Shown here piece by piece: positions 6,961-54,705 of a stretch of 64,000 nt of DNA. Location of the stretch: contig CM114271.1 of assembly GCA_050084515.1 (NCBI GenBank), positions 46,686,001-46,750,000 on the forward strand, given 5' to 3'. Position numbers and translations under genes: made by a program. Each line of letters begins with the position of its first letter. Position 1 is the first letter of the stretch. The DNA is from Blasia pusilla (taxonomy: Eukaryota). The notes below the pieces were generated by a model. It was not told the origin of the DNA. It ran no database searches and saw only the letters and a list, made by a program, of their open reading frames with translations.

Positions 6961-7096
6961 TTATCTTTGATGAGCGTGAACTTGGGGTCGTTGAAGATCT
7001 GGACGTTTGGGGAGAACTCAAGGTAGTCGGAAGACCGCGACGCCAAGGAGGAACGCAAGAGGTGAGGAGGAGATCTGAGAAAGCAAAGACTCGCAA

Positions 7097-12304: not shown

Positions 12305-13335
12305 TGTCGCGACCCTCATAACCAAACAGCACCAAATAGGCGCCAAGCGAAACATCAGAGCTCAAAGGAACTCACGCTGCGAGGTTTGGGCTTTGGAGAG
12401 GCGTTTGGAAGAGTCTCTTGGAAAAGTCTAAGAGACGAAACGTGGAACAGAGTTGTGCGTTTCATGCGCTAGTGGTCGCGACCAGGAAACCTAGACCAAA
12501 CGCGAGCCAAGACTTGAGATGAGTTGAGTCTTGGGAGGTTGGTTGCCAAAGAGGTGAGAACCATTTTGGAACACGATTAGCGTTTGGGAGAATCTGACTG
12601 TGTTTAGGACCATAACGTTGAGCTCCTATATGCGTTCGTGACAAGTAAGGGCGCGTTGGAAAGCTGATCTTGAGACGCTTCCAACGAACTAAAGATCTCA
12701 GAAAATACATAAGTATAGGCTGAGATATTGGCCAAAAACGATTGAGAGAGCAATCGGGTTGAGGGCCAATTGGAGAGGCCCGGGTGTCTTTCCCTAAATG
12801 TAGGGGGCCCCCGGAGATCCCCAGAAGTACTAGTAAGGGAGGACCCTCTCCGAGATGTCTCGGGAAACGAATCCCCACTTTGGGCGCCAAACGGCGTTTC
12901 AGAGGCACGGGATGGAATGAGAGTTTGGCGCGGAAATCCGAAACCCAAACCTGATCCAAGGGAGTGGACTTTGTACGCCATACTTGGATCTCAACCCGAG
13001 ATTCACTTCGTGCGTTTCTTGGTGAGGAAATCATTGGATGTCCATCGGACAGTTGGAACCGCTAGGCGCGAAACGCCGTTTCAGGTCCCTGAACCGACCA
13101 GAAATTCTATCCCAAGTCTTTCGAGATTTGCCCGTGTTGGAAACCGCGAAACTAGGAAGGGTGAGCTTGATGAGAGTCCAAGTGAAGAACTCGGAAAGTG
13201 ATCCCGGTGATTGATCAAAGACCCGACTAATCGAAGTGCGTGTTTGGATGCAGATCATCGTTGAGAGCGTGACCTACTGAAGGCACGCTTCCGCAACAAA
13301 CAAGATTAACGTTCAAGGAGAGTAGGCGCACGACA
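12305..13335 (+). repeat. 3' LTR of chromovirus
   Basis: TGTCGCGACCCTCATAACC...GGCGCACGACA, direct repeat of 5919-6946. Confidence 0.95.
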
Positions 13336-16452: not shown

Positions 16453-19400
16453 ATGCCTCCACCCGCATTGGCCCCTCGCGAAGGGGCCCGTGGGTCATCT
16501 AGTCGGGATACGAAATGCCCTTGTTGTCTCGAATTCTTCACTCGTTCAGGAATTCGGAACCACTTAGCGGCTTAACATCGTGACTTTGATAGATTTGGAT
16601 GGGTGGTTCCTCCAGTCGATCATGGATGCTCACCGGTGCTTCATGCATCATCGCCCCCTCTCGAGGCATGGGAGTTGTTGAGGTCCCACCTTGGCAGCAT
16701 CACGGGTCTCTTTGAGACCCGTTTTCCTTGCCCGAGGTTGTTTCATAGGATCCCCCATGCCATTCGGGATGAGCTTCGCCAGACTTTCCTCCTTTCCCTA
16801 TCTAGGATCGCGCTTGATCCTATGGATGAGCTCTCGTGGTATCTACTACTTCTGCTTCCATGATGGTATCTTCACTATACCAGAGGAGGGAAGACTGGCC
16901 ATAGAGAGCATCTGGCCCGATTGCGGCGCTTTCGAGGAGGCGATTGGGAGTCTCTGCAGAGCGAGTTTGTGGCATATACAAGAGGTAGCACTTCACTTGG
17001 TTTCCTAGCGGACGATCTTGTAGCAACCAGATTGCGACGATGTAGGACACTTGGGCAAGCCAGGGAGTACTCGAAAGCGGCTCGTGCGCTCCTCCCTATG
17101 GATATGGCTCCTCCTTCCGCTGTTACCATCGACGCCTTCCGGAGGCTACATCCTCGTCCAGTGGTTGACATCCTAACATTTGTACGTGACTTCCATCGTG
17201 ACACGACCTTATGCCTAGACGTATCCCTTTTTGCATGGGCACTCAGGGGCGTTCCCCTAGGATAGCAGCTGGAGGGTTGTCCGGTATGATGTATGAACAC
17301 CTTCGTGATTGCTTTCCCCCCGAGGACTCTGCTAGCGGCTTTTCCGAGTTACTTCAGGTTGCTTCTCACCTAGCTCAGGGGAGAGTGCCAACAACAATAG
17401 CCTAGGTATTGGGGGCGGGGCGACTTTTGGCATTGTCGAAGGAGGGTGGAAGGATCCGTCCGATCGCCATAGGGGAGGTGCTCTTGCGATTGGTGAGTAG
17501 CACTATCGCTTTGCAATTCCGTGAGGCTTTCCAGTCACATCTGAGTCCGAACCAGTTCGGAGTTGCCACACCAGCCGGTTGTGAGGCGGTAGCCTTAGGT
17601 TTGAGGGCTTATTTAGATATACATCATGAGTGGATGGTTCTCCAAGTTGATGTGGAGAACGCCTTTAACTCAGTGTCTCAGGCAGCTATCTTCACGGAGC
17701 TGAGAGACGTAGGGGGTCCTATTGCGAGTCTGATTCCCTTCGTGCATGCTTTTTATGGGCCTCCCTCGGCTATCTATTTTCACCATGGTACGTTCGAGGA
17801 GGAGGTCACGGTCTTGGAGTCTGTTACCGGGACGCGTCAGGGTGATCCCTTGGGTGGTGCATTGTTTGCTTTGGCTCATTATCGAACGGTTCTTTCTACG
17901 GTGGAGGCTTTCCGGGGTTGCATTTTCCCTTCGTTGGCAGATGATACTCATATTGCTGGCCCTGGAGACCTGGTCGTTCTTGCATTTGAGCACTTTTCAA
18001 CACAATTGGCACGTGTCGGCCTCGCGGTGAAGGTGGGAAAGTGCAGGGCTTGGTCTTTATTAGACTTGTCAACGGATATTCATTTACCCGAAGATTTTTT
18101 GACACCTGTTGGAGGGCTTCGCGTCTTGGGAGTCCCACTCCGGAGCCATGACTTTGTATCGAGTTTTATAGCGGCGTCTCTTACCGAGGATCTTCTCCAT
18201 GTCGACGATCTCATGAGGATTGGTGACCCTCAAGTAGGTTATGGAATCCTCTCGTCATGTTTTGCTCGTAGACCTGGTTATCTGTGTAGAATCGAGTGGG
18301 CGTCTAGCCATATTTCTTCCTTGTATAGATCCTTTGATAGAAAGATCATGCAAATGTTTGGGGATCTTCTAGGACCCGGCTCATTAGAGTGGCCCGCGGG
18401 GGAGTTAGCTTGTAGACAGGCTTCTTGGCCGAGTGCCTTGGTTGAGTAGGTCTCATAGCGACCGAGTTAGTGGCATCTTCACCTGTTTTAGGGAGTTGGG
18501 CCACTGTAGCACCCCTCCTTTGCTCCCAATTTTTGGGCAGGGATAGATCGCTACTTTTACAGTACTTTTCCCAGGTTGAGGATGGTCTTTTCCCACTTCA
18601 GTCTTCATTCACAGCTTGTAGAGACTCCCTTCTTGTTGAGGCTAGAGCAGTTCTTCCCGCTTTCTCTTCCCTAGTTACCTCCGGACAGTCTGGGCTCCAA
18701 TCTTCTTTGATAGAAGCCCACTTTGATGTATTGTTTAGAGCTAGTATGTCGGACGGGAATATCCCCATGGAGGTTCGGGCCCGTATTCGCTCTTGCTCTG
18801 GAAAGGGGGCAGGCTCATGGATGGGGGCTCGTCCCCTCATCGTGGCTTTCCGCATCGCACCACTCACCTACACTACAACGATGCGGTTCCGACTGGGCTG
18901 CCCCAACCATTGGTGATTGGTTTGACACATTACGAGTGTCGCCAGAGTCTGGATCCACTTGGTGTGCATTTGGCACGATGTCCAGTCAGGGGTGAGAGGA
19001 TAGCCACTCACGATGCAGTGCGGGGTATTATGTTCTCTATTGCTCGGGAGAGTGGATTCCATGTACATAGAGAGAGGCACTACTCCATGCGGGATTCCCT
19101 CATCCGTGCTGATCTCTACATGACATGCGAGTCTGAGGTGGTGGTAGCAGATGTTGTAGTGACGGATCCTACGTGGGAGGCGGTGCGAGCCCAAGTGGTG
19201 GCACAAGGGAGATTGCTACAAGGAGCGGCGGCGGCCGCGGTCAAGAAGACCCACATTTATAGTCGACTTCATGACGGACATCGATTGATCCCCCTAGCCA
19301 TTGAGATGTACGGGGCTATGGGGAAGAGGTTTGACTTGTTCCTTATGGATTGCGCCCATCATCTCAAGTCGATAAATGGGTTTTCCTTAGCCACAGCGAT

Positions 19401-19730
19401 ACTTTATTGTAGGCAACGGGTTTTCCTTAGCCACAACGATACTTTATTGTAGGCAACGGGTCTCCATAGCTTTGCAGAGTGCCCAGGCAAATGGGCTTTT
19501 GCGGCGGGCTCAGGCGGTTGGAGACGCCAATGCTACAGACCCACTTAGTAGCACTCATAATTCTCTAGGTGTTGCTGATATTATCTCTGTTGTTGGTGAT
19601 TTTGGTCGTTAGGGGGGAAGGCCCCCTTCTTTCTCATCGGGGCCGGTTCCGACCTTCGGAGTTTTTTTCTCTCTATGCCCCATTTGTATCCTGATGGCTT
19701 TCCCATCCTATTTTTTATTTATATATATAT
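16453..19730 (+). mobile_element. CRE-like non-LTR retrotransposon (C2H2 finger, RT, CCHC-like motif, restriction-like endonuclease), disrupted single ORF ~16453-19612; 5' boundary uncertain
   Basis: KCPCCLEFFTRSGIRNHLAA*H; RT motifs RIRPIAIGEVLLRL, DVENAFNS, GTRQGDPLGGALF, SLADD; ECRQSLDPLGVHLARC; HDAVR; RADL..VADVVVTDP..KK..PLAIEMYG; RQRVSIALQ. Ends in a T/TA-rich tract near 19710-19735. Confidence 0.85.
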
Positions 19731-21268: not shown

Positions 21269-24200
21269 ATGGGTGTCGGAGCTGGAGCTGGAGAGAATGG
21301 GCAGCGTCAAGTGTATTGCATTGGCGCTATGGATACGAAGGCGGTTGATATTAGATATGTCGCAGATGCTCTTGGGTCGGCTCTATCGAAATTCTTGCCC
21401 GCTTCAAAGCACGTGAGTGCCGGTGTTGGCAGATCGTCCATCATCTTGCTGGATGTGTGTGGTTATCATGCTCGTTCTGAGAGAACATGAGTTAATTTTG
21501 AGGACAGTGTAGTACAAGAATGATGTCACGGAGACAGATCGTCTCTGAATTGGATCATCGCACGAGCTCGAGCTCAATTTCGAATCTTCCGATTTCCCAT
21601 ATTCGATGATCGAAGTCGCTGTCCTGTAATGGAATAATGAAAAAGAAATCTCCTTTTCTGACGTGGAAAAGGAAATTTATAAATCACAAATTCCACTGAA
21701 CCGTTGCTCCGTCTTGTAGCATGGAAGTTGATTCTGTGAGGGTGGAAGGATGCTTTGGTTTAGTCGGGACTAGTCTAGAGTTCTTCCTTAGTTCAACTCG
21801 ATAACTTGTGAGCTACTTTCTCAAATTGCATGGACAGTGTAGCGCATTTGGGTACCGAGTTGAGGTACCGGCTACAAGTTCTCTGGTACTCAGATTGCCA
21901 CCTTCCTGGCGCCTCTACATGCTGTCAGTATGTGCTGCAGCTACTCTTTAGTCTAAGAGATACCTTTAAAGATTAAAGTCTGATTATCCATTACATTCAC
22001 GAGAAGTCCTGCTACACGAAGGAATCGAGTGTGGATCCCCTGATAAGCAAAGTGGGCCTCAACAGAAGATACCGTCCAGTAGAGTCAGCTGGGTAGTCTC
22101 ATCGTTCTTGAATGCTTTGGTGCACGGGAGCTATGGTTCAACGTTTTAAGGTTCAACAGGTTCAAGCTGTGATTGTGAACAGTAGAAACCGTCCAGTGAA
22201 GTCAGCTGGGAAATCCCAGCGTCCTTGAATGCTTCGGTGCACGGGAACTATGGTCTTGACGTTTTAAGGTGGGTCGTGCAACAGGTTCAAGTTGTGATAG
22301 TGGACATCTCTACAGCAAAATCAAATCACAACAAACCAGAAGTGTTGTGCACGAAAAGAGAGGAAGTCCTGCGTCACCACCCTGACATCACGAAGAGATC
22401 GGTGGCTGCTATTCCCAGTGACAGGGGAGCGGCAGTGCAACTTATGAGTGAAGCCCTTGTTGAGTTCCTGAAATGTCGTCACTCGGAAGGATCTTTACTA
22501 GGTGCCATTGGCTTAGGAGGCTCTGGAGGGACTTCTATGCTTGCACCCGGTTTAAGAGCCATGCCATTGGGAGTTCCTAAAGTGTTGGTCTCCACTGTGG
22601 CCAGTGGAAATACAGCACCCTATCTTGAATCCTCAGACCTTAATCTAGTTCCTTCAGTGGTTGATGTGGCTGGCTTAAACAGTATTAGTCGAAAAATATT
22701 GGCGAATGCTGCTGCCTCTTTGGCCGGCATGGTGGCTTGCCAGGTCGAAAACGGATTGAAAGGGGAGGACACGGACAATGTTTCTGTTGGATTGACAATG
22801 TTCGGAGTAACTACATCTTGTGTGACTGCCGTGCAGAAGCAATTAGCAGCTCGTGGGTACGAGCCGATTGTGTTCCATGCCACTGGGAAGGGTATGTTGG
22901 TCGATTCTGTGTCTGAGTATTGAATTTCATTTGTTTCTGACAGATTTACGGTACATTTCTGGCCCAGACTCGTCCAGTAGAATGTTCACAGTGATCCGCC
23001 TGAACCATACTTAAATGACTCGCTGATAATCGATGTTCAATCTTTGAACAGGAGGGCAGGCTATGGAGGGTTTGGTGGAGCAAGGACTTTTACAGGTTTG
23101 TAGCACCCCTCTTCTCAGAAGTTGGTTCAGGTGAGAGCCTCAGATTTCTCGAGGAGCTATCCGAGGGCTGCTTGATGAACAGCTGCAGGATTAGTATGTT
23201 CATCAGTGTACTGACTGATTACAGAGTGAGAATGACTGAATGCTTGAAACCGTACTAAAAGGAGAGAATAGCAAGGAAGAAGGGAAAATAAGGCAGTCTT
23301 TACCAAACATCTACCCCAGCCCTGCAAACATAGAATCCTTTGTCCATGGATTAGTGAGGAGATGAGAAGGAAAGGAAGGCTTGCAATCAGATAATGACCA
23401 TCGAAAAAACCTTCACAGTCCAAGTTTAATGGGAATTATGTCTAGCAGAAGGCATAAGCTGGTAAATGTTTGGAAGAAGTAAAGGCGAATCAGGTTTCAC
23501 AACTGTCGTATTTTCATTTAAATCTTGTTATTGTTGGTCCTTATGTCATCCTGTCAGGGATGGTTCACCAAAAATGAGTCAGACCCTGTCTTGCCTCATC
23601 ATGTGGCTTATGGTCAGACAATCTGTTGTCATAGAGAATTCAAAGAGATGCTTTTGATTTCAGGGGGTGATTGACATCACAACGACAGAGGTCTGTGATT
23701 ATGTGGTGGGGGGCACAATGCCTTGCAGCAGCACTCGATTTGAGGCATCTTTGAACCGCCAAATCCCTCTGGTATTGAGTGTTGGTGCACTGGATATAGT
23801 TAACTTTGGAAGCTTGGATACTGTACCATCTGAATTTGCTGACCGACATCTTCATATTCATAACGAGCAGGTAAACCTGTTAGGCTAGGATTCCATTTCA
23901 TTCACATTAACCGTCTAATATCAATTCACTGAAGGAACAGTGTGCGTGGAATCTTTTCTTAATGTGATGCTAGTGTTGCATGTGTATTTTCTAGCCCCAC
24001 AGTGTAATACTTCGTCAATGAGGATCAAATTCTAGTCGCACAAACCTGAGAAACTTTAGCCTGTAAGACTAATTCATAGGAAATCAGGTGACTTTGATTG
24101 ATCTTTTCCAAACTGAAAATAATACTTTGCTGAGATCTATTTATTCTTATATTTTCGTCACTATTTCCAGGTAACTGCTATGCGGACCAACGTGGAAGAG

Positions 24201-27284: not shown

Positions 27285-29150
27285 GTTTAGGGATCGGATT
27301 CAGTGAACATTCCTTGTTCCATGAACTCAACACAGGATTGCAGAATGAATAAAAGGACCACTTGAGACAAGCTACAGGATTCAAAACATGACCTCTTCAT
27401 CGTAAGTGACTGGATCACTTAAGAGTTCACAATCCTAGCAAATTCCATTATAAATTCTTCCCGCGACTACTAGTTTTTACTCTCCTTCTGGCCGCTGGAC
27501 AGGTTGTCGAGTCGCTTTTCAAGGCTTTCGCAATAATTTGATCTTCCAGTTCAGGATACAAACTTATTCCCATCAGTTCCGTTAAATGTGTTGGCAGCAC
27601 ATTTATTGCTCGTCTGCACTCTTTCTCTACACTCTAATTGTGGTTCCTGCGTCAATTACACGGACGATTCACGAGGGGAAGTTGTACTGGTCGTAGATGT
27701 ATACCTTCTTTGTTGTCGGTGCGTTGTCCATGTTGCCCACCTGATATTGTGTTCCTCCCGGCAGCCAAAAGTCTCAAACTATGCAGGACCATGGGCAACA
27801 ATGGAATGGAAACTTGGTCTTATCTTCCGCAGAGCGAAGTTACCACGCTTGCAGTGGGATTCCTATCGTCGCCAATCTCAAATCCAATTGGAACTCACGA
27901 TCGTTACCAGTTTGACTGTCGACTGGATGCGAACATGTTTTCCTCTCCTCTCATCCCTTACACCGCTAACCGGCTAAACATCGTTTGGGACAGAACGCTC
28001 TTAAATGGCGTTGCTACGTAATCACTTGAAGAAAGTCTGGAGCGCTTACAGCCTGACATTCGTCACCTCGTGCGATATCTGTGACCATATATTCAACGAC
28101 ATCGCAGTTCTCACGCATGTGTGCCTAGGACTTTCATATCGTTTCGCGTTCTCCCCAAGGAGGCAAAGTCCACGGACCATGCTCTAAAAGAAGAGAAGAA
28201 AGCTCAGGAATCTAAACTCTTCGTCGCCGCTACCTTTAAAAGAGAAGAAATAGTCCACGTACATAGACTACTTGTCGTCTCGGTAGCATATAAGAGACGA
28301 AACCCACGAGAGCCGTGATAACCTCGCAAAAGAGACAGTCACGCACATCACCTTTCGTGGTAGAAAGAATTAAAGATAGAACTTAGAAAAGGCTTACTTG
28401 TCAATGCCGGACGGCAGATTACCTCCAAGCTCAAGAAAGGTATGCCACGCCATGAAGAACGTGAAAGTTCTGCAACGATTCGGGCCAGCAAAGGGCGAAA
28501 CACAGATTCTTTCGATTGCCTTTCGTTTCTCTGACACGATTCCTCCGATTCTGGCGCGCCTACTTTGACGCACATTTTGACAGCAGTCTCTATAGACTCT
28601 ATTCAAGAGATTCTTGGTTGATCACGGACAGTAGGCGGCGTCAGACAAGACGCGAGCAGATATGCCAGCGCAGCAGCTGGGCGTCATTGTCGGTATTTGA
28701 ATTTTGAAGTTGGAAGGAGGTCAGCCGAGAAGATTACTTTAATAGAAAAAATAAATAAACTGTGTTAACTGGCTGGTCGCCGAATGGAAGGCGGGTTTCC
28801 ATTAATTTTTTTAAAAAAATTAGGAAGTAGTGGAAGATTAATGACGTTGCATACAAATTAAAATAAAATTTGTCCGTGACTTGTGAAATATTTTTTATAT
28901 GATTATCATGTGTCAAACATATAGGTATTCGTAAATCAAGAAGGCATTTTCCCATAATAATATAGATTTCACAATAATTTTTTAGATTTATTTAGAAAAA
29001 GATGAATGAATAATTGTTATAGGTTGTCGAAATATAGTTTTCCAACGCGATCGTCTTTGAAATAAGCTTGCGTATATGATTTGTAACATCCATGATTAAG
29101 ATCTGGCATGCGATTGGAATGGAAGGATCGTACGGAAAAGCAAGGAAGTT

Positions 29151-29286
29151 TGTCGTGCGCATACATATCGCTACACAACATACATCGTTGGTCACATCTA
29201 CGCCACACAACACCGATCTTCCCCACACACGGGTCGATCCACACATGTACAAAAATCAACTCATACATATACATGGAGATCACACA
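29151..29286. repeat. Repeat A (136 bp), direct repeat of 29770-29905
   Basis: TGTCGTGCGCATACATATCGCTACAC...GGAGATCACACA versus TGTCATGCGCATACATATCGCTACAC...GGAGATCACACA. Confidence 0.95.
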
Positions 29287-29288
29287 AC

Positions 29289-29767
29289 AAAAATAAAGAG
29301 TAGTAAAAATGACACACCCGGCCTAAACTCCACTCCTCAATCTACACCGGCATATCGAGCCTCGTCCACCCTGTGTTATCAAGGAATCCGGATGCTAGCA
29401 CCCTAGTCCTATCTCACACACATACAAGGGAGGTGCTCCAACGACCCAACATGAGAAAGATGGCTTAGGAAAGCCATCTTCCTCTCTTATATAGGGTTGG
29501 GAAGAGCCAAAAGGCTTTTCCCCTAAAAATAGCCCTCCCCTTGATAACCTGCGCGCACAGGTTACCAAGGGCGGGTGACCTGGTCAACAAGTCATCTGGC
29601 TGTAAAAGACCTCAACATGAAAGTTGTCAGAAACGACGTTCCTGACGCAATGGACCTATTCTCAATCTCATCCGACACTGTGGGACAAAGTTACAATGAA
29701 GATAGTCCGCTGGCTTCTACGCCCTATCCACGATAGATCTCGGCCTATCGGTTACTCAGATGTGACA
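29289..29767. repeat. Repeat B (~479 bp), direct repeat of 37948-38426
   Basis: AAAAATAAAGAGTAGT...TCAGATGTGACA in both copies. This copy lacks the first TGT. Confidence 0.95.
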
Positions 29768-29769
29768 GC

Positions 29770-29905
29770 TGTCATGCGCATACATATCGCTACACAACAT
29801 ACATCGCTGATCACATCTACACCATACAACACCGATCTTCCCCACACACGGGTCGATCCACACATGTACAAAAATCAACTTATACATATACATGGAGATC
29901 ACACA
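29770..29905. repeat. Repeat A', directly downstream (minus strand) of the PPT AGGGGGGCGAT
   Basis: Second copy of A. Minus strand reads ...CTAGGGGGGCGAT|TGTGTGATC. Confidence 0.93.
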
Positions 29906-29983
29906 ATCGCCCCCCTAGTTGGCACTTGGATCCCCCCAACTCCAGATAGAAAATATCACATCTCTCTGACATGACCTACTACC

Positions 29984-30145
29984 CTATACACATCTCGAAC
30001 ACATCCATCGTCCCGTGGGAACCACATCAAGAGGGGGGGTCAGACATGACATATGCCACCCTCGAGAACAACCATCACATACCAACATGGTGGCTGCACC
30101 CCTCGCAGATCCGCACAACATACACCTCAAGCCTGCATGTACCAT
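29984..30145 (-). pseudogene. PHD finger at the C-terminus of integrase
   Basis: CMLCGSARGAATMLVCDGCSRGWHMSCLTPPLDVVPTGRWMCSRC is a complete C4-H-C3 PHD with the conserved W before the last Cys pair. Confidence 0.93.
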
Positions 30146-30325
30146 TGCCAAGCTCGGATCCACCGTCCCATCTACGTTCGGAAGATGACATGGCGCACAA
30201 TTGCGCACATGATCCTTCCAAACCATACAATCCCGTTCCTCCAACATGAGGACTCCGGTTGGTAATACCTCGCGCACACATAGGATCGTGCGCCCCGCAG
30301 TGACATCTAGCGTCGTGGGTACCGC

Positions 30326-33056
30326 CTACTGTAAATACACGTAATCTCCACGATGAAACCTCCTAATCCCTGGACGATAACCTCCTCCACGAATGGTCGC
30401 GTACCTCAATGTATCTCTATGCGAGGCAGTAGCTAAGTTCTCAAAGGCCATAGGCATAACTCTACGAAAAACTTTTGCCCTCTGAGAACATGCTTGTACC
30501 CACACATCTGGATCATCAAGATCTAACACCTCCGCCATGTCACGTCGAATCGCTGTAGGTAAATCTGGCTCTCTCCCAAAGAGCAAAACGTACGGTGAAA
30601 ATGACGACAAGGATGCCTGTCGACTAAAGCGATAACGCATAGCCAACCATAGCAACTGTAGATCCCACTCCCTCAACTGTCCCCGCCGCAAGCCATACTT
30701 GCGCAATCCTCTCTTCATCGTCTGTACCACTCTCTCCGCCAACCCATCCGCCTCAGGATGATCTCTGGACGTGGTGCGGTGATCTATCAGCGCCTTATCA
30801 CATAAGGCCTGAAACTCTCCCCTGAACTCGGTACCCTGGTCAGTCAACACCTCCGCCGGTGCACCAAAGTGACTAAGCACACGATCTAGAAACGCATAAG
30901 TTGTTCCCTTGCTCACCTTGTCTGGTAGTGCCACCAACTCTATCCACTTGGAGAAATGCTCCACCATGACCAACACGTACCTATGATGACGTCCCGTCAA
31001 TGGCAAAGGTCCCGCAAAGTCTAAACTCCACCGATAACCTAAACCTATAATCGGCAAAGGATGTAACTGCGGAGTGGGAGCATTGAAGGATGCTCGACTC
31101 TGTCACATACCATACATCCGCCACAAACCGCTGTACCCCAATATGCATGCCGCGCCACCAAAAGATTGAACCCGAGTAAGTGTAAACGCTTTACTCCGAA
31201 ATGTCCCAACTCCTCATGGGCATGTCGTACTACACGTGCTTGCTGGGAAGGATGAGGTACCACTCGTATCTTACCATCTCCCCATACCCGCAAAATGTGA
31301 GTCTCCTCCCCCCGAACCTCTTGGCTCTCTCAGAGGATCCGATCCGCTCCCTAGCACTCATGACTCGCAATGACGCCGGTGCGCAAGAACTCCACAACCT
31401 CCATGTCGTCATGGATATCACGACCACCACCGCCTCCTCACTAACCTCCGGATCCAAAGACTCATCATCCAACCCCACCACCGAGTCATCACCGCGGGTG
31501 ACCGCCATAGTCAACCAACAAAGATAGGCAGATGCATGCCAACCGGGCACCATCTCCTCATCACTCTCTCCGTGCCATCGAGCTCTTGTGTCGTCTCTCT
31601 GACTCGGACATGGGTTACGACTCAACCCATCCGCATCCTAGTTCAGCCGACCTAGCCTATGAACCACCTCCAAACTCATACTCATGTAGTAATAGAGCCC
31701 ACCTCGCAAGCTTTCCTGTAAGCTTGTCGGACTCCATCAACCACCTCAACGGCTGATGATCAGTGATAAGTGTGAAAGGGTTGCCGAATAAATAGCACCT
31801 GAAATGTGCCACGGCCCACAATGCAGCCAAGCACTCTCCCTTGTAGGAGCTGTACTTTGCCTCTGCAATGTTGTTCGATCCGCTCGCGTAAGCCACAACG
31901 AACTCCCTCTCCTCATCATCCCTCTGAGTAAGCACTGCTCCTAGACCCAACATGCTCCAATCCGTATGTAACTGGAATGGGCGACCCCTAACCGGTCTTT
32001 GTAAAATGGGTGAGGACGTCAACCTGTCCTTGAGCTCCTGAAATGCTCGCTCTTGATCATCTCCCCACAACCAAACCTAATCAAGTCTCGTCAACAAGGT
32101 CAAAGACTTTGCGATCGCACTAAAACCCTTGACATACCGTCGATAGAAGTTTGCCAGTCCAAGAAATGCTCGAACTCGACTCACATCTGTAGGGCGTGGA
32201 ATCTACGCAATAGCCTCTACCTTCGTCTGCTGAACGCCTAACTCACTCGGGTATATGGTGTGTCCCAAGTACTCAATCTGCTCCTGAAAGAATCTGCACT
32301 TGGCTGGATGTAACTTCAGTCCATGTAACTGCGATCTCCGAAACACCTCCTCCAAGTGTCGCTCATGCTCCTCAACTGTGGAACTGAAGATAAGAATATC
32401 ATCTATGTAACATTGTACAAAATCCAAGCCAGCCAGTATCCTATCCATCACTCTCTAAAACTCTGCAGGCACGTTCTTCAACCCAAATGGTAAGAACCAC
32501 CACTGATACAAGAAATCTCTCCCGAATCGATCTATCCCCCAGAATGTTGTCTTCTCCGTGTCCTCCAACCTGATAGGAAGCTGATGATAGCCAAAGATGG
32601 AGATCTAAAAAGCATCAAGATCTTTGCATGCCCTACCGCATCAAAGATCTCCTCAGGAGTAGGCATGGCGTACCGATCTGACCTCGTCTGTCGGTTGATA
32701 GGACGGTAATCTCCACACATCCGCCTATCCGTCCAATTGCCATACATATCCTTCTTTGCCGGCATGACTGTGGCAGATGCATACTCCCCATGTGATAACT
32801 CCACAAGTCGTGCCTCCAACAAGTCCTGACTCCTGCTCTAAATCAAGGCTCGCTCCATATCAGAATACCTGTAGGGTCGACATTTAAAGATCGGCGTATC
32901 ACTAGCCAACTCAATCCGTATCCCGGGACCCTTCTGCGTACCCAAGTCTCTCATACTGAAGGCAAAACAACTGACATGCCCTCTCAGAAACCTATGAACT
33001 CGCCGTCGCTCTCCTCCTATCAACTTGAGACCTATCACAGGCTCCCAAGTCTCCAT
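30326..33056 (-). pseudogene. RT, RNase H and integrase of the MTase-Gypsy (fragmented)
   Basis: RT: YASATVMPAKKD..RMCGDYRPIN, YIDD. RH: LHTDWS..GLGAVL, ECLA..WAVAHFRCYL, TDHQPL. IN: HAHEELGHFG..CMVC, SLDFAGP, LTDQGTEF, GLAERVVQ. Confidence 0.93.
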
Positions 33057-33369
33057 CGTGACCTCACTCGGAGAGGACGCAACCTCCGCCTTTGGTTGCT
33101 ATGTAGCAACCCTAGCCACCTCCGCAACAACCACTCCACTCTGACCTCCTACACCATGCTCCACATCCTAAAAATGAACATGTGCTACTCTAGCCGCCTT
33201 CGCACTCTCTGCTTGAACGACGTCCCAGGAAGTCCATGGGTGCCTATCTCTCCTCGTCTCGCCCCCAGCCAATGCCTATACAGACCCTATAGGCAATGGT
33301 CCAACTCATGGATGTGATGGCATGGATGACACTCGCATCCGTCTGTGCTCAGCCATACCTAGGCTGACT

Positions 33370-34320
33370 ATCCATGTGAGACAGTTGAGGTCCATCGCCT
33401 GCCCCAACACCTGTCTCCGGGATGCCTCAGTCATCCCTGGCACCGCCGTAGTACCGGTAGTGAACCCCATGGCGCGCTCGCGCTCATCTGCTGTAGGCTC
33501 CTCCAATGCTCTGGTCACCTCATCCCAAATCATGCCTAGCCCTCCCTGAGGAAAGGCACGGGATGCTGGGAAGCTCACCAACGTAGGTAAGGCTGCCCTC
33601 AACTCCCCCACCCTATTGGCCATGGCCAATGGTGGTCTATCATCCCGTGTCACCACCTGAGATCGATGCCCTAAGCCGAAAATAGCATCCACTGTGAGAT
33701 GTGGTGCTCTTTGGACTCCACCGTATGCTTGACGTGGAGTGACATATCATGACGTATCATGTTCGTCCACCACAGTCGTGGACGATGGGCACGTGACCCA
33801 ACTCTCGCTGCATCTAACAACACAGCAGGTCCCAACTAGGACCTCACCTGATATACACTCGTCATCACACGTGCACGAGTGTCCATTGGAGAACATGCCG
33901 GCATGTTCTCCAAAATGTACGTTGGAGAACAAATGTGACTCTCCTGCAAGTGTCGTACTACTTACAGCATCTCCCAAAACATCCCTGACCTCGGATTCTG
34001 CAATCCAAATCCTCGGCCAGCTGATGAATGATCCTGACATGGCCATCCAACAATCACCAAATGAATGGTGCCAACTCTATGCATATCCTGTGCCCCCACC
34101 AAAGAGATGTCGGCGGGTAGCGTATGCTGATATCCCCGTACTGCAGATACCAGCAACAACTCAGGATACCTTTGGACCAATCTCGCCACGTGACGTAATG
34201 ATACTCGCCGCGCGGTCTCATCTCTCTCCACATAAAGGTACTGATGCACCCGTATGCCCGCCTGCAATAGTGCAACCAATCCGGTGCTAATCCCTTCAAA
34301 GAGATCTAACACCCTAACAC
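33370..34320 (-). pseudogene. C5 cytosine DNA methyltransferase domain, DNMT3-like (disrupted)
   Basis: Motifs in linear order: I RVLDLFEGISTG; II YVERD; IV GWPCQD; VI YILENM (~33900-33920); VIII LDAARVGSRAHRPRLWWTN (~33760-33815); IX ERERAMGF..GTT; X RRQVLGQAM. Confidence 0.9.
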
Positions 34321-34701
34321 CCTCCTCTGGGCATTGCCACACAACAGGTGTGGTATCCAGTGGGGTCAACCTCTCCACTCCAAGAGCCCGATCGCCATGT
34401 GACTCTTGCTGCTCTGGGATAAAAACATGACTCCACGCCTGCCTCACGAGGTCGTCGGCACTCCTCTGTAGCTCTCGAGTCGTACCCCACAATGGTGAAG
34501 AGGCCTCGCCAACATGGGAAGAGACACCCGCCATGGCTTGTCTCTCCGTGGGACTATCCGCTACTGGGACATCCTCCGCATGTGCGTTCTCCTCCAACTA
34601 CTCTCCTGGCCAACTAACACTACTTGTGAAAGTTGCCAACGTGGTCACAGACTCGCCTCGTGATCGACCACCTCGTCCCGCAAACTGCACGGGTAACTGA
34701 C

Positions 34702-35118
34702 TCATCTGGCCAGGATGGCAGTTAGGTGACGGCCAGGATGGACATCACCTAACCGCCATCCTGGCCGATAAGCAACGGTCTCCTCCCAGAAGTCAATGAT
34801 GAATCCTAGGGGATATAACACTGTACTCCCCACCAACACATCGTACGACTCAACTGGTGTCTTAATCGCACGTGTGCGCACCATAGCACTATCCGTCACA
34901 TGCTCTGGCTAGACTCTGACAACAATCTCCTGTCGAGTCATATACTGAGTGGGTGATACGCCCCCAATCGAGGTCTGTATCTGGAAGGGACAAGGCTCAA
35001 TGTCGGCCTTCCGTAACCCCAACGCTAAACACGCCGCCTTCCCTAACATCAAGGGTTGCGCTCCCGAATCAAGTAGGACATGCTGCGGGTGATATACTGT
35101 CACCGTCGGACTAACCAA
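34702..35118 (-). pseudogene. Retroviral-type aspartic protease
   Basis: VLLDSGAQPLMLG ... YDVLVG, with one in-frame stop at 34909-34911. Confidence 0.8.
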
Positions 35119-35985
35119 GCAAAATACTCAAGCTCGGTTATCCAGTAACACTACTCCAGGTGTCACCACTGCTCGTTCTATGGCCAGTCGAGCTGGCATA
35201 TCTACCAACTTCGCCGCCGCCGCATGCCATGACTCTGTGGGGAACGTCCCAAGCACCGGCTCTGAGGGCAAGTCCACCACCTTCTCAACTACCTTTGAAC
35301 AAGAAGCAATCATCTCTCCACGCTCACACAACATGGCGGCCAACCGGAATACCTCAGCTGGTCCAACCCCCAACGTCGCCAACTCTATGGCGGAAAATAG
35401 CGGAGTCTGACTCACTCTGGTGGCCACCTCCAACACTATGGTCGACACTGACTCCACTCGAGCCGGCATAGGAGTTGTCACTCCAACTCCTCGTGACGTC
35501 GACGTGGAGTGTGCCGAATCAGAGGCACTTTGCTGGTCGTCGAGGCACCATCGATGGTGTGTGTAGTGCCTCCGACAATGTGAACGACTGTGGAACCCTG
35601 GCCTGCCGCCCATTGGTCCCCTCTGGTGGATCAATCTCAACTCCACCTCTCGATGGCTCGGTGCCTCTCGTAGCACCCCGAGTCACCACTGCAGCTGCCT
35701 CAACCTGGGCTACACTACACATAAATCCCATACTGGCGAGATCCTCACCCGGGTCAGGGTAAGAGGTAGAAGTTGGAGTCACACTAGCTGCTCGCAGTTC
35801 TGTGCCTTCCCTAAGCTGCATCATCGTCATGGCAGCAATCCTTGGCTCCAGCCGATCGATGCATGAGAGAAGTGCCGGTTCTGGTGCTCCTGCTCCATCT
35901 CCTCTGGCTGGTGGTGGTCCTCTACCACCACGTCCAGGAAAAACTCCCCGACCTCCTCTAGGACGACCGCCCCCAGGCCCTCGGC

Positions 35986-37065
35986 CTACCTCTGGACGTG
36001 CCCCTCAGCAAAGGTCAAAACATCTATCCCTAGTGTGACCATATATGTGGCAATGGTCACATTGGTGCTCTGGTGGGGCCATCCTCTGTGGCTCCTGAGA
36101 AATCGGAGGCACTGGTGGCCCTCTCCCATGCTGAGGGCAGTCTCTCTGCCTATGGGCCCCTCCACACGTCCAACAAGACCACATCGGTCCCTGCTGGGCA
36201 ACATATGTAGGTACGGTCGTTGCCTCATAGGCTCACGGTACCCGCCCCGCTCTCTAGGCACACATTGGCCCGCTCCCATGGTATCGGTGCTTCTTGTGGG
36301 TGGGCACTGTGGGGTCACCGTCGCTCGTGGACCCGTCAACTCTCGAGAAAATCCAGCGGTCACTACCTGCTCCTCACTCATGTTGAGCTCAATATGCTCA
36401 GACAACTCAAAGACCACCTTCAATGTGGGCTTCACTGTGTGAATCAACACCACATCTCGGACTCTCCTCCGTAGTTCTCGGTCCAGAACCCCGTACCAAT
36501 ACTGGACCGGCTGTGCCTCAGTCACTCCAAACGTAGCAATGATCAACCTCCTCATGCGCGTGAATGCCTCTCTCCGACTCTCACCCGATCGTCGCTGAAA
36601 ATCCTGTAGACTCTTTAGCTTGTCGGTGCGTACGCCCTGGTAGCTCTTCCCCAACTGTCGGAAGAACTCCACTATGGGGCTAAAGCTGGGTGGCCCTCTA
36701 CCACCAGAGGTCTCTGCCACATCGCCTGTCTCACTGCCCTCCTCTCCATCTAGTCTCCGGGCTGATGGTGTGGGTCTCTCTCCTCTCACAATCCCATCAT
36801 ATGCCTCGCGACCACTAGTGGACAGATACCCTGGAGCCCAATACATCCTCCAAGCATCGATCTCTAATGAATATAGTGATCGAAACTCCATGTAGTCATC
36901 CATCGGAGGACCCTCCAAGTGCTGGAACAACCCCTTCCATGCCATGAAAGGGTTGAACCGTGTCGGGGTCCGTATCTCCTGGAAGTCGCACCATGTGTCG
37001 AACTCCTGGATAAAATCATCTAAGTCGATGGTGCCCACTACACCATGTTGTCCATCTCCTGCCAA
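35986..37065 (-). pseudogene. Gag with two zinc knuckles in a shifted frame
   Basis: 359-aa ORF at the 5' end of the element. An alternative frame gives CWTCGGAHRQRDC (~36140-36175) and CDHCHIYGHTRDRC (~36020-36061). Confidence 0.8.
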
Positions 37066-37947
37066 GTACTACTGTCTCTGTGTGTGATCTCGTCACCAGA
37101 CCCTGTGTCCAATGATGACGAGCCAGCCACAGATGGATGTCAAGGTAGCTCCTCACTGGTAACCCCTCGGTATCTCACTCCACTCCGTGTCACACCACTA
37201 CTACTGCTCGCACTACCCTGTTCTTCCAAACCCTAGAAGAACGCCGTGATGACAAACCCTGTCTCACCCGCTCAAGCACTCAGACTCACCGAGAGTCTCC
37301 CACACGCCTCACTAGCTCACCTATGCTAACATCAATCCCATGATGACATACCCGGCCTCACGCACGCTCAACACTCGGGCTCACCATGAGCCTCCCAACT
37401 GACTCACCTAACCTAGCGACACTCTCTTGGGTCATACACATGACCCCTACTTGGCAACCGCCGTATATCCACCAACATGCTACAGACGAAAAGAATCTAC
37501 ACTCGTCACCATCACTGCACCCACCTAGCACCAGCTACTACCCGATACCGAGCACTCTCAATCACACACGACAAGTGCGAGAAAAGGGATGCGCGGAGGG
37601 GGGGAGGGGGCGCGCCGTCACCGCCCGCCGTCTGTCCGCGACCGCTGACCTAAACGCCCGTTAGCGCCCCCGGCGGCTGCAAGCCCTAACTCTCTTTTCT
37701 TCTCTGTCTCGACACCCACACTCGCGTACACCCGACGCTCCACCGCACATTACACTCGGCTGCTGTCCCGCGTCAATCCGTACCAGCAAAATCTGAGAAA
37801 AATGGACAGCGCTTCCGCCCACGGCCTTCCAAACAGAAAAATGACAAACACCCGCAACACACGCGTCTCCAAGGGCTCTTGACCAAGGCAACTCACTTGC
37901 CTACCTGCAAACAAGGAATTCCCACCAGCCCCCTGACATCTTTCTCA

Positions 37948-38426
37948 TGTAAAAATAAAGAGTAGTAAAAATGGCACACCCGGCCTAAAACTCCACTCCT
38001 CAATCTACATCTGCATATCGAGCCTCGTCCACCCTGTGCTATCAAGGAATCCGGACGCTAGCACCCTAGTCCTATCTCACACACATACAAGGGAGGTGCT
38101 CCAACGGCCCAACATGAGAAAGATGGCTTAGGAAAGCCATCTTCCTCTCTTATATAGGGTTGGGAAGAGCCAAAAGGCTCTTCCCCTAAAAATAGCCCTC
38201 CCCTTGGTAACCTACGCGCACAGGTTGACCTGGTCAACCTGGTCAACAAGTCACCCGGCTGTAAAAGACCTCAACATGAAAGTTGTCAGAAACAACGTTC
38301 CTGACACAATGGACCTATCCTCAACCTCATCCGACACTGTGGGACAAAGTTACACTCAAGATAGTCCGCTTGCTCCTACGCCCTATCCACGATAGATCTC
38401 GGCCTATCGATTACTCAGATGTGACA
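37948..38426. repeat. Repeat B' (5' terminal repeat) with minus-strand TATA box at 38150-38156
   Basis: TGTAAAAATAAAG...GATGTGACA. Minus strand reads TATATAA..25 nt..ATCTTTCTCA. Confidence 0.93.
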
Positions 38427-38953
38427 AGTTCAACGACGCTTCTTCTAATTCGTCCTACTTAGGGCATGTCATGGGGAGCCTTTGGCATCTCCCATCCAAT
38501 TCCTTGGGATGTTCTGTGGAAAATGCCCGTCGTGTCCAACAGTGTATACAGCGAGATACGCACACTATGTGTTGCATAATCGTACATATAGATTGGTGAA
38601 GAACTCGCGTTGATCCACAGAATGCATGCCAACCATTTGTAGGATATCGTAGCAAATACATATGGACCATCCCAGAGTTGATTGTCTCCTCCCGGTACAC
38701 ACAAGTGCGGAAGAGTTCACGTCTAGCTAGGTATGAGAGGCGCATGTTTGTCATCTTGGGAGTCATTTTTCATGTTTGCAATTAGTTTATGAGTCCACTT
38801 CATACAAGTCATTTGCAAAATATTTGCGAGCCTAATGCGAGTTGACACTAGTTTGCGACTGTTCCTAATTTTTCATGTAAGTTGCAAGTCTTGTGTATTT
38901 GCGAGTCCAAAGAGACGCAAAAGACTTGACACATCACATTGAGATTTGCAAGT

Positions 38954-48800: not shown

Positions 48801-51701
48801 GAACCTGGGCCTGCTCGGACATGTCCACGAATACAGACTTTGTCCGTGTGCAACCTTGTAATCCGCCATTAGAGGCATGATGAGGCATCCCATATTGCAA
48901 GGATAATCTCTTCTTTCATCAAGAGGAGATGACATACATCCCGCACATGGTAATACTAGATCCCAAATGTAAGATCTTTATTGACACTATTTGAGAGCAA
49001 CTCAAGAACTGATTGTGAGGTTCATGGTGCATATTTGGTGGAAAATAGGAATCTAAGATATGATTTAGAGAAGAGATGTGAGAGGTTGAGTTTTTCTCCT
49101 TGACAATGGAGGTGTTTGGTTGTCTTCACCTATGGATTTTTGGAGGTATCAACACCAACGACAAGGAAGGAGTAGAGGTTAAGGGCATTCCATCTCTATC
49201 TAAGGGTTGGTCGGTTGTTAATCTCAAACAACAAATTTGCAAGACCCTTCTAAGGGCATAAGCATAGGGAATATAATATAGAGTTTTGGAAGTAAACGCT
49301 TGTTTTACTAGAGGTTCTATACTTTCAATCGAAGTGTTGTACTTGTAAAGAACTTACATACTAGATCATGTAGCCTAGCTAAACCATTATTGGCAGGAGT
49401 TTTCTATGAAGTTTATGCCTTCTTTTCTTGAATTTTTTTTCATGGTGGGGGTTATTCTTATTTGTTATTTTGGGATAATTTTCTATAGATATATGTATAA
49501 AGAGCGTCTCAGAAATGCCATAATTTAACTATATAAACTATGAAGGTTGCATATTGACATCCATGAAAATCAAACTTGTTGTAATTGGTTCCAAATCTAT
49601 ATAAAAAGTATAAACATTCAAGATAAGGATCTTTGACCAATTTACGATGTCCATGAGTCCATTGGAAGATAGTCATTCAAAATTAGGTTAGAATTTGTAG
49701 TAGTTAAAAAAGGAAAGGGAAAACTTAAAAACACATTAGTATATTGGATAATCTATAGAATATTTTATAGTTTATTTAAATAACTGAAACCTTTTTCCCC
49801 AAGGGACTAACATATAGTGGGTCCAAGGGATGGATATGAAAAACTGTAATAAAAGATAGATGAAAATAAAATTCGAACAATTGAAAAAAATTGGAGATCA
49901 TAAATACTTTTGGTGAATAACACTTGTAGGTATATATGGTGAGAAATTTATGAGGAAATCCAATTGCAATGATAAAAATCTAATATGAAAATTTAAGAGA
50001 TGAGTTGCTTCTATGCAAGCATTTTCATTCATTACTTTCTTGAAGAAAAAAATTGATTTTAAATGATGTCATACTAATTAGGACCCGTGAGAGATCGTGT
50101 AATTTAATTAATATATATAAAAGAAATAGATGTCACGCGCCAAAGACACTTGTTTATATACCTCCCAAACCGTCCCCATTTCATAAACATTTTGTTTCTC
50201 GACCATAAATTCTAGAGAATTGAAGTTTTTAGTTGGATGTTTCCATTGAAAAATTGTCACTTCCGAACCTTTGTTCACACATATTTATTAATTTAAAAAT
50301 TTGACAAACAGAAATATGATAATTTAAAATAATCCTTGATGCAGATAATAATAATCAGTATCGCGTAAGTTGCCGTTGAAAGGATGCTCGCGTGGTTAGG
50401 GAAGGCGTTGTGGGGACAGCCACTGCAGTCGTAGTCCACAATAGTATCGTGGAGGAGTTCGCGGAGACAACAGTCAAGTCGCCGACTCCAGTGACGGTCA
50501 CACCGGTGGGTCCTACATATTATTGTTTTATTAAGCTGGGGTTGTCCCTTGTGATTCCCAGTAAAACGGATTGTGTGTTCGCGGCTTTCCACTTTCATGG
50601 GACCGTATGATATACAGACAGACAGATGGATCGGGGCTGCCGTCCGGCGACGGCAGTCGGAACCCGTTGTGAAATCTGCTATTTCTGGGCGGGCCCGGGA
50701 CTGGAGCGAGACGGCAGTCGAGTTCACGGACCGGTCCGACGGTCAGATGGGCCGGAAAAGCTGTACGACCCATTGTAGAGTGTAGAGTGTAGACCCGGGC
50801 GAGGAGGAACGGGTTCACGGAGCACGGAGGCGTCCTTGGAGGCTTGGAAAGCGCGTGCACGAATCGATACTCAAATGGGAGTCCACTGCGTAGAGCAGTT
50901 TGTTCTCGACTCTGTCGTCTTGGGAGCGAGACGGAGATTCATGCTCGGGGCCTGCTCGCCTTCTTCAGCTTGCAGCGTAGCCGGAGCGGCAGTGGTAGTG
51001 GTGCGAATTCTGACACAATGGTAGGAAATTTCTGCAGCTCTACTTCCATATACCCGCTTGCGCAATCGAAACTCTCCGTGGCACTCACTAATGTCTCCAT
51101 GCGCCGCGTATGGCCACTGCGAGTTGTAGTCAATTGATTACTGCCAGCAATCGAAAGCGCAATTCTCCTTCTCGTGATATCCCAGCGGAGACTGACTGGT
51201 GGAGCGATGAGCGATGATGATACCAGTCGTAGCTCACCTTGGAGAACATGGATGTCAATTTCAATGAGAGACAATTGCGCGCGTGCGCACACACATACAT
51301 TCTTCTGATTGAGCGGTGCTTGTCGTGGCCTTGCGAACACAGACCCCGCGCGCTCTGGTGCTCTGGGATGGGTAGAGGAGGAGACGGAATGTTTGAGAGA
51401 GACTTCTATTCTAGTCCACGGGAAACACAGAGCTCTATGGGATCCCTTCCATACGTGTGATTGTCACATCGTATTCTGCGGGCACTTTCACATCCATCCA
51501 GATTTCAAGCACTCGCTTGGAGTTCCCGTGGAGGAGATTTTTTTTTCCCATGAAGACCTGGGTTTCTTTCCGGATTCGGGAGCATAGTTAAGTCACAGCA
51601 AGCATGGGTTATCCATACCGCCACCAGGCGGGTATTGAACGCGTGGTCGATTCGCGAGATAACATTCTACTGGTGCTGTGTAGGAGGGGAAGGAGCAAAG
51701 C

Positions 51702-54700: not shown

Positions 54701-54705
54701 ATTGA
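51702..54705 (+). CDS. NRT1/PTR family (NPF, likely NPF8-type) peptide/nitrate transporter, exons 51702-51852, 51960-52177, 52804-53369, 53805-54705
   Basis: [30 protein letters not shown] (ExxER), [88 protein letters not shown]. Confidence 0.95.

Follow-up and report, generated by a model that had tools for sequence, protein, structure and literature searches.

Here, we analysed a 64,000-nucleotide stretch of Blasia pusilla DNA (GenBank assembly GCA_050084515.1, contig CM114271.1, positions 46,686,001 to 46,750,000 of the forward strand), which we call the window and in whose numbering all of the positions below are given, and which contains a retroelement that carries a DNA methyltransferase domain. 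The locus is very probably a dead insertion of a Ty3/Gypsy-type retroelement from the Gypsy-DNMT3 lineage, which was first described in the charophyte Klebsormidium nitens and is found here in a land-plant host. The element lies on the minus strand, spans 9,276 bp (38426-29151) and is flanked on both sides by a 4-bp target duplication. Its coding order, as read from the three-frame translation of the minus strand of 29300-38500 and from the list of open reading frames (ORFs), is gag, protease, DNMT, reverse transcriptase (RT), RNase H, integrase and a PHD finger. Along the coding strand, the features were as follows:

38427-38430, minus strand: target-site duplication AACT on the 5' side; the same four bases follow repeat B2
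37951-38426, minus strand: terminal repeat A1, which starts with TGTCAC and is 93.8% identical to A2 over 481 columns
35989-37068, minus strand: gag-like ORF piece of 360 aa (ORF list and translation)
34705-35127, minus strand: aspartic protease with the string LLDSGAQ, broken by a stop (translation)
33309-34597, minus strand: DNMT3-like C5 DNA methyltransferase domain with its N-terminal linker (PF00145, PDB matches and translation)
33099-33101, minus strand: conserved in-frame stop between ORF1 and ORF2, TAG followed by CAA CCA, a stop-CARYYA context (comparison of loci)
32206-32837, minus strand: RT in two frames with the string YIDD (RVT_1, 61.6 bits on 32454-32206)
31660-32076, minus strand: RNase H (RT_RNaseH, 116.2 bits; RT_RNaseH_2, 109.8 bits)
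30329-31329, minus strand: integrase comprising the zinc-binding part and the DDE core and interrupted by a frame change (rve, 56.2 bits on 31102-30329)
29987-30325, minus strand: C-terminal PHD finger, 3' of the integrase (PF00628, 43.7 bits, E 2.7e-11)
29907-29916, minus strand: polypurine-tract-like AGGGGGGCGA, immediately 5' of repeat B1, with the same string before B1 in the related loci L031 and L043
29770-29906, minus strand: repeat B1, 95.6% identical to B2 over 137 nt
29289-29767, minus strand: repeat A2, which matches A1
29151-29287, minus strand: repeat B2, which matches B1 and in which the element ends with ...CGACA
29147-29150, minus strand: target-site duplication AACT on the 3' side, matching the 5' copy

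The element belongs to a family with many relatives. A protein search returned 22 long matches, i.e., 16 'hypothetical proteins' of Marchantia polymorpha, one protein of Calypogeia fissa, two of Sphagnum and three unnamed ones; the first 21 were 39-62% identical to the window piece and the weakest, P0023, was 30% identical. The exhaustive protein search found 2659 representatives at E 1e-3 or better, 20 of them at 1e-30 or better, and a profile search yielded the K. nitens protein KFL_013780020 (P0173), which has a CCHC match, an aspartic protease match below the cut-off and PF00145 at 58.4 bits. Some of the protein models continue beyond the DNMT, P0013 and P0020 into RT and RNase H and P0022 on to the integrase. 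A scan of metagenome contigs confirmed 126 stretches, and the 80 loci that were retained were typed by tblastn using the window's twelve protein pieces. Two domain orders were distinguished. In 53 of the 80 loci (L001-L052 and L058), whose DNMT was 36-68% identical to that of the window, gag/protease precede the DNMT and RT follows it wherever these parts are present on the contig. In the other 27 (L053-L057 and L059-L080; identity 29-41%), RT and RNase H precede the DNMT and the integrase follows it.

The Ty3/Gypsy domain complement, i.e., protease, RT, RNase H and integrase with RVT_1, RT_RNaseH, Integrase_H2C2 and rve, is present in the window and in the intact relative L040. Ten element pieces of the window were scanned against Pfam, and five of them, namely the DNMT pieces of 54 and 146 aa, one RT piece, one protease piece (72 aa) and gag, matched no family. 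The gag piece is collinear by eye with the gag of the Marchantia protein P0003, two Cys-His knuckle-like strings were read in the minus-strand translation after the gag-like frame (36232-36005), and the relative L001 matches zf-CCHC. The protease of L040 and P0173 matched Asp_protease_2 below the Pfam cut-off. When aligned with the near-intact polyprotein of L001, the window copy fell into nine pieces with eight frame changes and 17 in-frame stops; apart from the ORF1 stop that is conserved in the family, these (about 16) are premature. Two in-frame stops and one frame change interrupt the DNMT stretch itself (34597-33309). An earlier reading of the window from its letters alone (hereafter, the sequence-only reading) had described this copy as disrupted, which these counts bear out. 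The DNMT region also contains a perfect 28-nt palindrome (33886-33913), and at the protease/DNMT linker (34701-34772) there is an imperfect inverted match of 70 nt (83%).

To judge from its sequence and its predicted fold, the methyltransferase is a DNMT3-type catalytic domain in unpermuted order. In the minus-strand translation, we read the strings VRVLDLFEGISTG (about 34320), GWPCQDHSSAG, ILENMP and DAARVGSRAHRPRLWWTN, which we take to be motifs I, IV, VI and VIII, respectively, and, after a frame change, ERERAMGF and RRQVLGQAMD (about 33390), presumably motifs IX and X. PF00145 matched the 211-aa open piece with 23.6 bits and the N-terminal 308-aa piece, with its two stops read as X, with 32.9 bits (E 6.1e-8), at a cut-off of 22; the relatives scored 35-58 bits. 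A phmmer search of the window piece against all of the PDB chains gave 48 distinct sequences at E 1 or better, of which the first 29 were DNMT3A, DNMT3B and DNMT3C (1.1e-7 to 6e-6), followed by the DRM enzymes (3.5e-3 for DRM2 to 0.02) and, from 0.24 upwards, bacterial enzymes. When P0002, the intact Calypogeia protein, was the query, the ranking was DNMT3A (8.4e-11), tobacco DRM (3.9e-7), DRM2 (2e-4), M.HaeIII (4e-4) and DNMT2 (9e-3), and no DNMT1 or chromomethylase (CMT) chain appeared at E 0.01 or better in this phmmer search. With both queries, the alignment to DRM2 was restricted to its motif I-IV half. The AlphaFold model of the L001 domain, made with 21 natural sequences, had a mean pLDDT of 91.6 and a pTM of 0.91; in Foldseek, all 31 matches listed (ranks 1-50) were DNMT3 chains, and the best was DNMT3A in 6f57 (6f57_D; E 2.8e-17, TM 0.73/0.81, 22% identity). 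The catalytic domains of the animal DNMT3A/3B/3C are thus the closest in sequence and fold and have the same motif order, whereas the element domain differs from them in its low identity (20-22% in the fold alignment) and in a longer stretch between motifs VIII and IX (alignment of P0002). GW.CQ, EN, AHR.R..W.N and the residues of motifs IX and X were invariant in 21 of the 21 aligned stop-free domains. Since no PWWP or ADD domain was matched by Pfam in the ORF1 of four relatives (L040, L001, P0003 and P0173), it is the catalytic domain alone that was acquired. The sequence-only reading had reported C5-methyltransferase motifs in linear order between protease and RT on the coding strand, had proposed PF00145 as the profile check and had called the domain DNMT3-like and not permuted as in DRM. 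All three points stood: motifs I, IV, VI, VIII, IX and X were found in that order, the profile matched above its cut-off, and DNMT3A/3B led both in the PDB search and, as DNMT3A, in the fold comparison.

The family has two ORFs: ORF1 consists of gag (CCHC), protease and the DNMT3-like methyltransferase and ends with UAG or UAA, and ORF2 consists of RT, RNase H, DDE integrase and the PHD finger. In the intact L040, a 1369-aa frame (protease; PF00145, 51.1 bits) is followed by a single TAG and then, in the same phase, by a 1047-aa frame with RVT_1, RNase H, Integrase_H2C2, rve and PHD; L001 has the same ORF1 stop plus one more stop. Each of the 34 first-order loci that extend from the end of the DNMT to the start of RT has an in-frame stop at the homologous site, as does the window (33101-33099), and six more first-order loci, in which there was no RT match, also show it. 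These loci are not independent, and we group them into roughly five lineages, namely the window, L001, L040/L042, L045 and the moss-like family. In Calypogeia and Marchantia, the gene models stop 87-89 residues after motif X and one JGI protein stops after 83, while four K. nitens-type proteins all stop 16 residues after it. Because the conserved in-frame stop and the ends of the gene models agree, we place the methyltransferase at the C-terminus of ORF1: it is the last domain of gag-protease-DNMT and not internal to one long pol. Of the proposal that a Gypsy element carries a DNMT inside pol, the Gypsy type and the position between protease and RT are therefore retained, and the placement in pol is not, since the DNMT closes ORF1.

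The bases around this stop are also informative. The context is TAG CAA CCA in the window and L001 and TAG CAG TTA in L040 and L042; in the moss-like family it is CAACCC after TAG (23 copies) or TAA (11 copies), and L043, L045 and L050 have decayed variants. Stop-CARYYA is given as the plant read-through consensus in the text of PMC5397192 that was available. A random hexamer matches CARYYA with a chance of 1/512, and full agreement with it in two distinct hexamers points to selection on the signal. In TMV and murine leukaemia virus, polymerase genes downstream of a leaky stop are known to be expressed by read-through. The likeness to these systems lies in the in-frame stop between the upstream and the polymerase frames, with the next six bases fitting the consensus; the difference is that the upstream frame of the element holds protease and methyltransferase besides gag, and that read-through at the ORF1 stop is something that we infer here from the sequence.

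The termini have an unusual structure. On the coding strand the layout is A1-internal-B1-A2-B2, in which the 137-nt B flanks A2 on both sides. A reading of 29325-29767 and 37988-38426 as plain long terminal repeats was dropped because of this extra 137-nt copy beside the 3' repeat, which was also found in four other loci; A alone forms the 5' end, and the 3' end is B-A-B. L031 and L043 have the same A..B-A-B layout (A of 337-342 nt, B of 113-116 nt) and the same conserved purine run immediately 5' of B1, and L007 and L020, whose 5' ends are missing, have B-A-B. Perfect 4-bp duplications lie at the exact repeat borders in all three two-ended elements (AACT in the window, and AAGG and AATC in L031 and L043); blastn with the B repeat of L031 gave no match at E 1e-8, and the duplication check thus comprises these three. 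The B1/A2 joint reads ...GACA GC TGTC..., and the element starts with TGTCA and ends with GACA. A 4-bp duplication is the signature of a DDE integrase and not of a tyrosine recombinase, and no tyrosine recombinase was matched by Pfam at E 1e-3 or better in the ORFs scanned, the integration enzymes matched there being rve and Integrase_H2C2. According to the accessible text of PMC4157794, the A1-B1-A2-B2 split direct repeat layout was defined for the PAT and Ngaro elements; PAT, Ngaro and VIPER share this layout with our element, including the internal repeats downstream of the coding part. The present element differs from these tyrosine-recombinase elements in its DDE integrase (rve, Integrase_H2C2) and its 4-bp target duplication. 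Literature listings and abstracts contained no paper on split direct repeats combined with an integrase.

The domain content of the sequence-only reading has to be supplemented with the PHD finger 3' of the integrase. A PHD match at this place was found in 16 first-order and 22 second-order loci. The closest solved fingers in the PDB were those of PHF12, CHD4, DPF3, DPF2, KDM5A/B, PHF21A, KAT6A, AIRE and UHRF1 (1.5e-13 to 1e-5). Many such PHD fingers read the unmodified H3 tail (K4me0), and the resemblance of the element's finger to readers of unmodified H3K4 may serve as a lead. Chromoviruses are Ty3/Gypsy elements with a chromodomain after the integrase; the reader after the integrase is here a PHD finger instead. 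No paper on PHD fingers of retroelement integrases was found among listings and abstracts.

Selection and copy state were assessed in the metagenome loci. One match covered at least 90% of the 314-residue DNMT reference in 51 of the 80 loci, and 28 of these 51 were stop-free in the DNMT, four of the first order (L001, L010, L040 and L042) and 24 of the second. The dN/dS was calculated by the Nei-Gojobori method. For L040 against L042 it was 0.12 (dN 0.032, dS 0.268), and L001 against twelve moss-like copies gave 0.13-0.17 at a dS of 1.6-2.2, i.e., near saturation. The median over the 66 DNMT pairs with a dS of 0.05-1.5 was 0.51 (range 0.12-0.76), 65 of these being pairs among decayed moss-like copies and the lowest value that of L040/L042; one extra pair with a dS below 0.05 (dN/dS 1.13) lay outside the filter. 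The RT-RNase H control had a median of 0.32 over 10 pairs. Across deep lineages the dN/dS is saturated, and dS was not computable for L040 against most of the other loci. The intact relatives retain all of the catalytic motifs and evolve under purifying selection (0.12-0.17), the outcome of the dN/dS check on the domain that had been suggested. The CpG observed/expected ratio was 0.73 in the window element, 0.28 in L001 (321-6809), 0.55 in L040 (976-8226) and 0.92 in the host transporter gene of the window; the strong depletion in L001 and L040, uncorrected for composition, would fit long-term methylation of the family.

The family is transcribed. No indexed RNA run contained the stretch itself. 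In three raw RNA-seq runs with the same species label as the best DNA match, 951, 996 and 1036 reads were placed on the element at a likeness of at least 90%. Pairs whose first mate lay on the plus strand predominated strongly in most of the 30 bins, and the element RNA would thus be sense (minus strand), assuming the usual stranded library. RNA reads on repeat B continued into sequence that is not that of the window, 41-91 per run at 29151 and 67-137 at 29190. The read consensus at 29151 opens like the start of repeat A and then diverges, which suggests that expressed relatives contain a B-A joint whose A has diverged.

Compared with known systems, the window element is, on the homology over protease, linker and DNMT and on its DIRS-like repeats with Gypsy domains, assigned to the KnitGypsy-Dnmt3 class. 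According to the main text of PMC5890265, KnitGypsy-Dnmt3 has an unpermuted Dnmt3-type domain in an intron-free Gypsy-type element, as here, and its domains fall in a divergent Dnmt3 clade; the legend of Fig. 4 describes Gypsy domains and a repeat structure 'the same as that of a DIRS retrotransposon'. Its protein P0173 (CCHC, protease, PF00145) is collinear with the bryophyte ORF1, and the DNMT is under purifying selection in both. P0173 and the Marchantia protein P0003 align in a single piece that includes the protease and extends as far as the final DNMT motif (29% over 569 aa, E 2e-54). The differences are the land-plant host, a DNMT in a clade distinct from that of K. nitens in the tree described below, the K. 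nitens domain being 32% identical to the window piece, and the ORF1 tail after motif X, which is 87-91 aa here and 16 aa in K. nitens. A 4-bp duplication, a CARYYA stop and a PHD finger are not mentioned in the consulted main text of PMC5890265 ('PHD' occurs 0 times). The dinoflagellate SymbioDIRS-Dnmt3 and SymbioLINE-Dnmt, described in the same text, are retroelement-borne C5 methyltransferases too, and the SymbioDIRS-Dnmt3 domains methylate CG de novo in yeast. Compared by description, these elements belong to other classes (tyrosine-recombinase DIRS and LINE), and the authors judged them to be independent acquisitions.

The kind of element was therefore already known from an alga, whereas its presence in a land plant is new in the sense that we did not find it in print. 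A 2026 preprint (10.64898/2026.05.21.726589) refers to Gypsy-DNMT3 in streptophytes in the text that was available, and PMC12344493 does so loosely. The main text of PMC5890265, whose Supplementary Data and Supplementary Figures 13-14 may list bryophytes, does not contain the words 'Marchantia', 'liverwort', 'moss' or 'Physcomitrella', and the papers on plant DNMT3 that were examined do not mention DNMT-bearing retroelements in land plants. This agrees with the earlier remark that no characterised land-plant family was known: no paper on such elements was found, supplements and subscription journals being outside the scope.

These features suggest a mechanism. Ribosomes would mostly stop after the DNMT, and a minority would read through to RT, RNase H, integrase and PHD finger, by which the methyltransferase would be produced at Gag-like amounts as an abundant Gag-protease-DNMT. 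Gag would carry the enzyme into the particle, where the protease would free it, and the enzyme may then add de novo methylation to the new cDNA, either ahead of integration or during that step. Integration might be steered towards silent chromatin by the PHD finger of the integrase, and new copies would arrive pre-marked, at sites of little harm to the host. We offer this chain of read-through, packaging, cDNA methylation and PHD-guided integration tentatively, and as a whole it falls somewhat short of probable.

Several points weigh against it and against parts of the anatomy on which it draws. Read-through, packaging, cleavage and the histone mark that the PHD finger would read are all deduced from sequence features. 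The K. nitens DNMT domain gave no methylation in yeast, which the authors considered inconclusive, and human DNMT3B likewise failed in the same assay (main text of PMC5890265). L040, the best intact relative, showed no terminal repeat on its contig, we recognised no primer-binding site, the window has no tRNA gene according to ARAGORN, and the route from a DDE-integrase element to A..B-A-B DNA is unexplained. The moss-like CAACCC fits five of the six places of the read-through consensus, and 11 of these copies carry TAA. The moss-like DNMT median dN/dS of 0.51 exceeds the 0.32 of RT-RNase H, either through dilution by decay or through weaker constraint. As regards the RNA, only 8, 5 and 6 reads per run were at least 99% like the window copy and about two thirds were 90-95% like it, and the family RNA must therefore come mainly from sister copies. 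Finally, the depth over DNMT and gag (33182-37891) was lower than over RT-integrase, both in RNA and in DNA contigs, which could reflect lower conservation or sister elements without a DNMT.

The most serious alternative is that the domain is kept for another role, such as methylation of RNA (the genomic RNA or a tRNA primer), non-catalytic binding of DNA or chromatin, methylation of the host's target DNA or a self-damping that spares the host. The negative yeast result is in line with it, the main text of PMC5890265 lists RNA methylation, camouflage, deaminase protection and self-limitation as options, and DNMT2 is among the weak PDB matches (9e-3). Yet the DNA enzymes DNMT3A/B score eight orders of magnitude better than DNMT2, the structures matched by the fold are DNMT3-DNA complexes, and human DNMT3B failed in the yeast assay as well. 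The catalytic Cys, the ENV and the RxR motifs are invariant in 21 of the 21 stop-free domains, which speaks against the non-catalytic version. We therefore regard another role as possible and, on the whole, unlikely.

A second alternative concerns the origin of the domain, namely that the bryophyte and K. nitens elements took up a DNMT3 independently and that the order RT-RNase H-DNMT-integrase-PHD stems from a separate capture. It was considered against a quick tree of 52 DNMT domains, which has SH-aLRT values only and a midpoint root on the long branch of P0023, and from which the order of events cannot be read reliably. The window fell into a clade (100) with L001, Calypogeia, Marchantia and Sphagnum/L010, and the K. 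nitens-type proteins formed a separate clade (100). The second-order clade (97), which was sister (88) to the bryophyte group plus L040, lies between them; this arrangement, in a tree without host DNMT3, would favour independent capture. Against it, bryophyte and K. nitens proteins are collinear from protease to DNMT, in both the DNMT follows the protease and the ORF1 end lies close behind it, and the DIRS-like repeat layout is common to both, as far as the legend of 2018 describes it. Moreover, the PHD finger stands 3' of the integrase in both domain orders. Independent capture thus appears improbable, and the tree is consistent with one old capture followed by a move within the polyprotein, of which it is no proof. 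As regards the second architecture itself, RT-RNase H-DNMT-integrase-PHD is often one giant open frame (e.g., 3329 aa in L071); its proteins are P0031, P0043, P0046 and P0051 and include a 'pol' of Scenedesmus sp., and the terminal repeats were not resolved on the seven contigs examined. P0023 (1978 aa) has the Copia-type RT family PF07727 (precomputed) and a weak DNMT-profile match (E 1e-13; 23 bits), and may be a Copia-borne DNMT of the kind mentioned in PMC12344493.

That a piece of a host DNMT3 gene had been picked up by this single copy or lay nested within it, or that the assembly is chimeric, is exceedingly improbable and was ruled out: the decay of the window copy and the lower RNA and DNA depth over the DNMT part than over RT-integrase would suit such a one-off event, but the protease-DNMT-RT order is collinear in proteins named from Marchantia, Calypogeia and Sphagnum, three genera of bryophytes, in 53 metagenome loci, in K. 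nitens and in a second fragment of the window, gag-protease-DNMT of L040 is a single open frame of 1369 aa, and the domain is not bounded by a duplication or breakpoint. The domain is accordingly a trait of the family, which supports the sequence-only reading. The second fragment (4603-5204, minus strand) is heavily decayed and comprises the protease end and DNMT pieces; for 5204-4603, tblastn gave 46% over 108 aa (E 1e-21) and 51% over 35 aa, and blastn gave 70% over 351 nt.

Returning to the element that methylates its own cDNA, the broadest form of this proposal is one old integrase-retroelement clade that spans the green lineage, with a DNMT3 writer and a PHD reader and with split repeats combined with a 4-bp duplication; its land-plant and charophyte members would place a Gag-level methyltransferase before a leaky stop. 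The clade would have survived into land plants, be abundant in Marchantia polymorpha and still transcribed, and mark its own new DNA by its enzyme. That all of this holds together is conceivable and at present rather doubtful.

The rest of the window contains other elements and host genes. A different Ty3/Gypsy-type element lies at 7079-11407 (plus strand), with open frames of 577 and 565 aa that read by eye as gag-protease-RT and RNase H-integrase; it has no DNMT, its RT shares about 31% identity with the RT of the DNMT family, and similar stretches occur near 6307-6825 and 12462-13201. It adjoins the decayed DNMT fragment and may have inserted into it. At 16864-19452 (plus strand), open frames of 133-347 aa look by eye like a non-LTR (LINE-type) reverse transcriptase. 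The open frame at 22186-22923 (plus strand), a candidate host gene, looks by eye like a Tm-1-like/UPF0261 protein, and a host NPF/PTR peptide-nitrate transporter with several exons lies at 51554-54705 (plus strand). Its exon at 53767-54705 is 74% identical to that of Riccia, 71% to Marchantia, 67% to lycophyte/moss and 56-66% to flowering plants, which identifies the host as a land plant that is closest to the liverworts in the database.

Hosts silence transposons mainly by cytosine methylation, and it has been an open paradox since 2018 that a transposon should carry a de novo methyltransferase of its own. The single streptophyte example so far was algal, with an enzyme without clear activity. 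The occurrence in bryophytes makes the question testable in plants, as Marchantia polymorpha is a transformable model with many copies that are labelled 'hypothetical protein', intact copies under purifying selection are found in metagenome contigs, and there are transcripts in a liverwort-like host. It is also a warning for annotation, since some of the bryophyte 'DNMT3' gene models are element ORF1s. Three features merit the attention of specialists, namely the position of the DNMT in ORF1 before a CARYYA stop, the combination of split repeats and a 4-bp duplication, and the PHD finger, and the anatomy yields hypotheses on the dose of the enzyme (ORF1 and CARYYA stop), on targeting (the PHD finger on the integrase) and on a replication scheme that is unexplained. 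If the proposal is true, the element would set its own epigenetic state rather than await that of the host.

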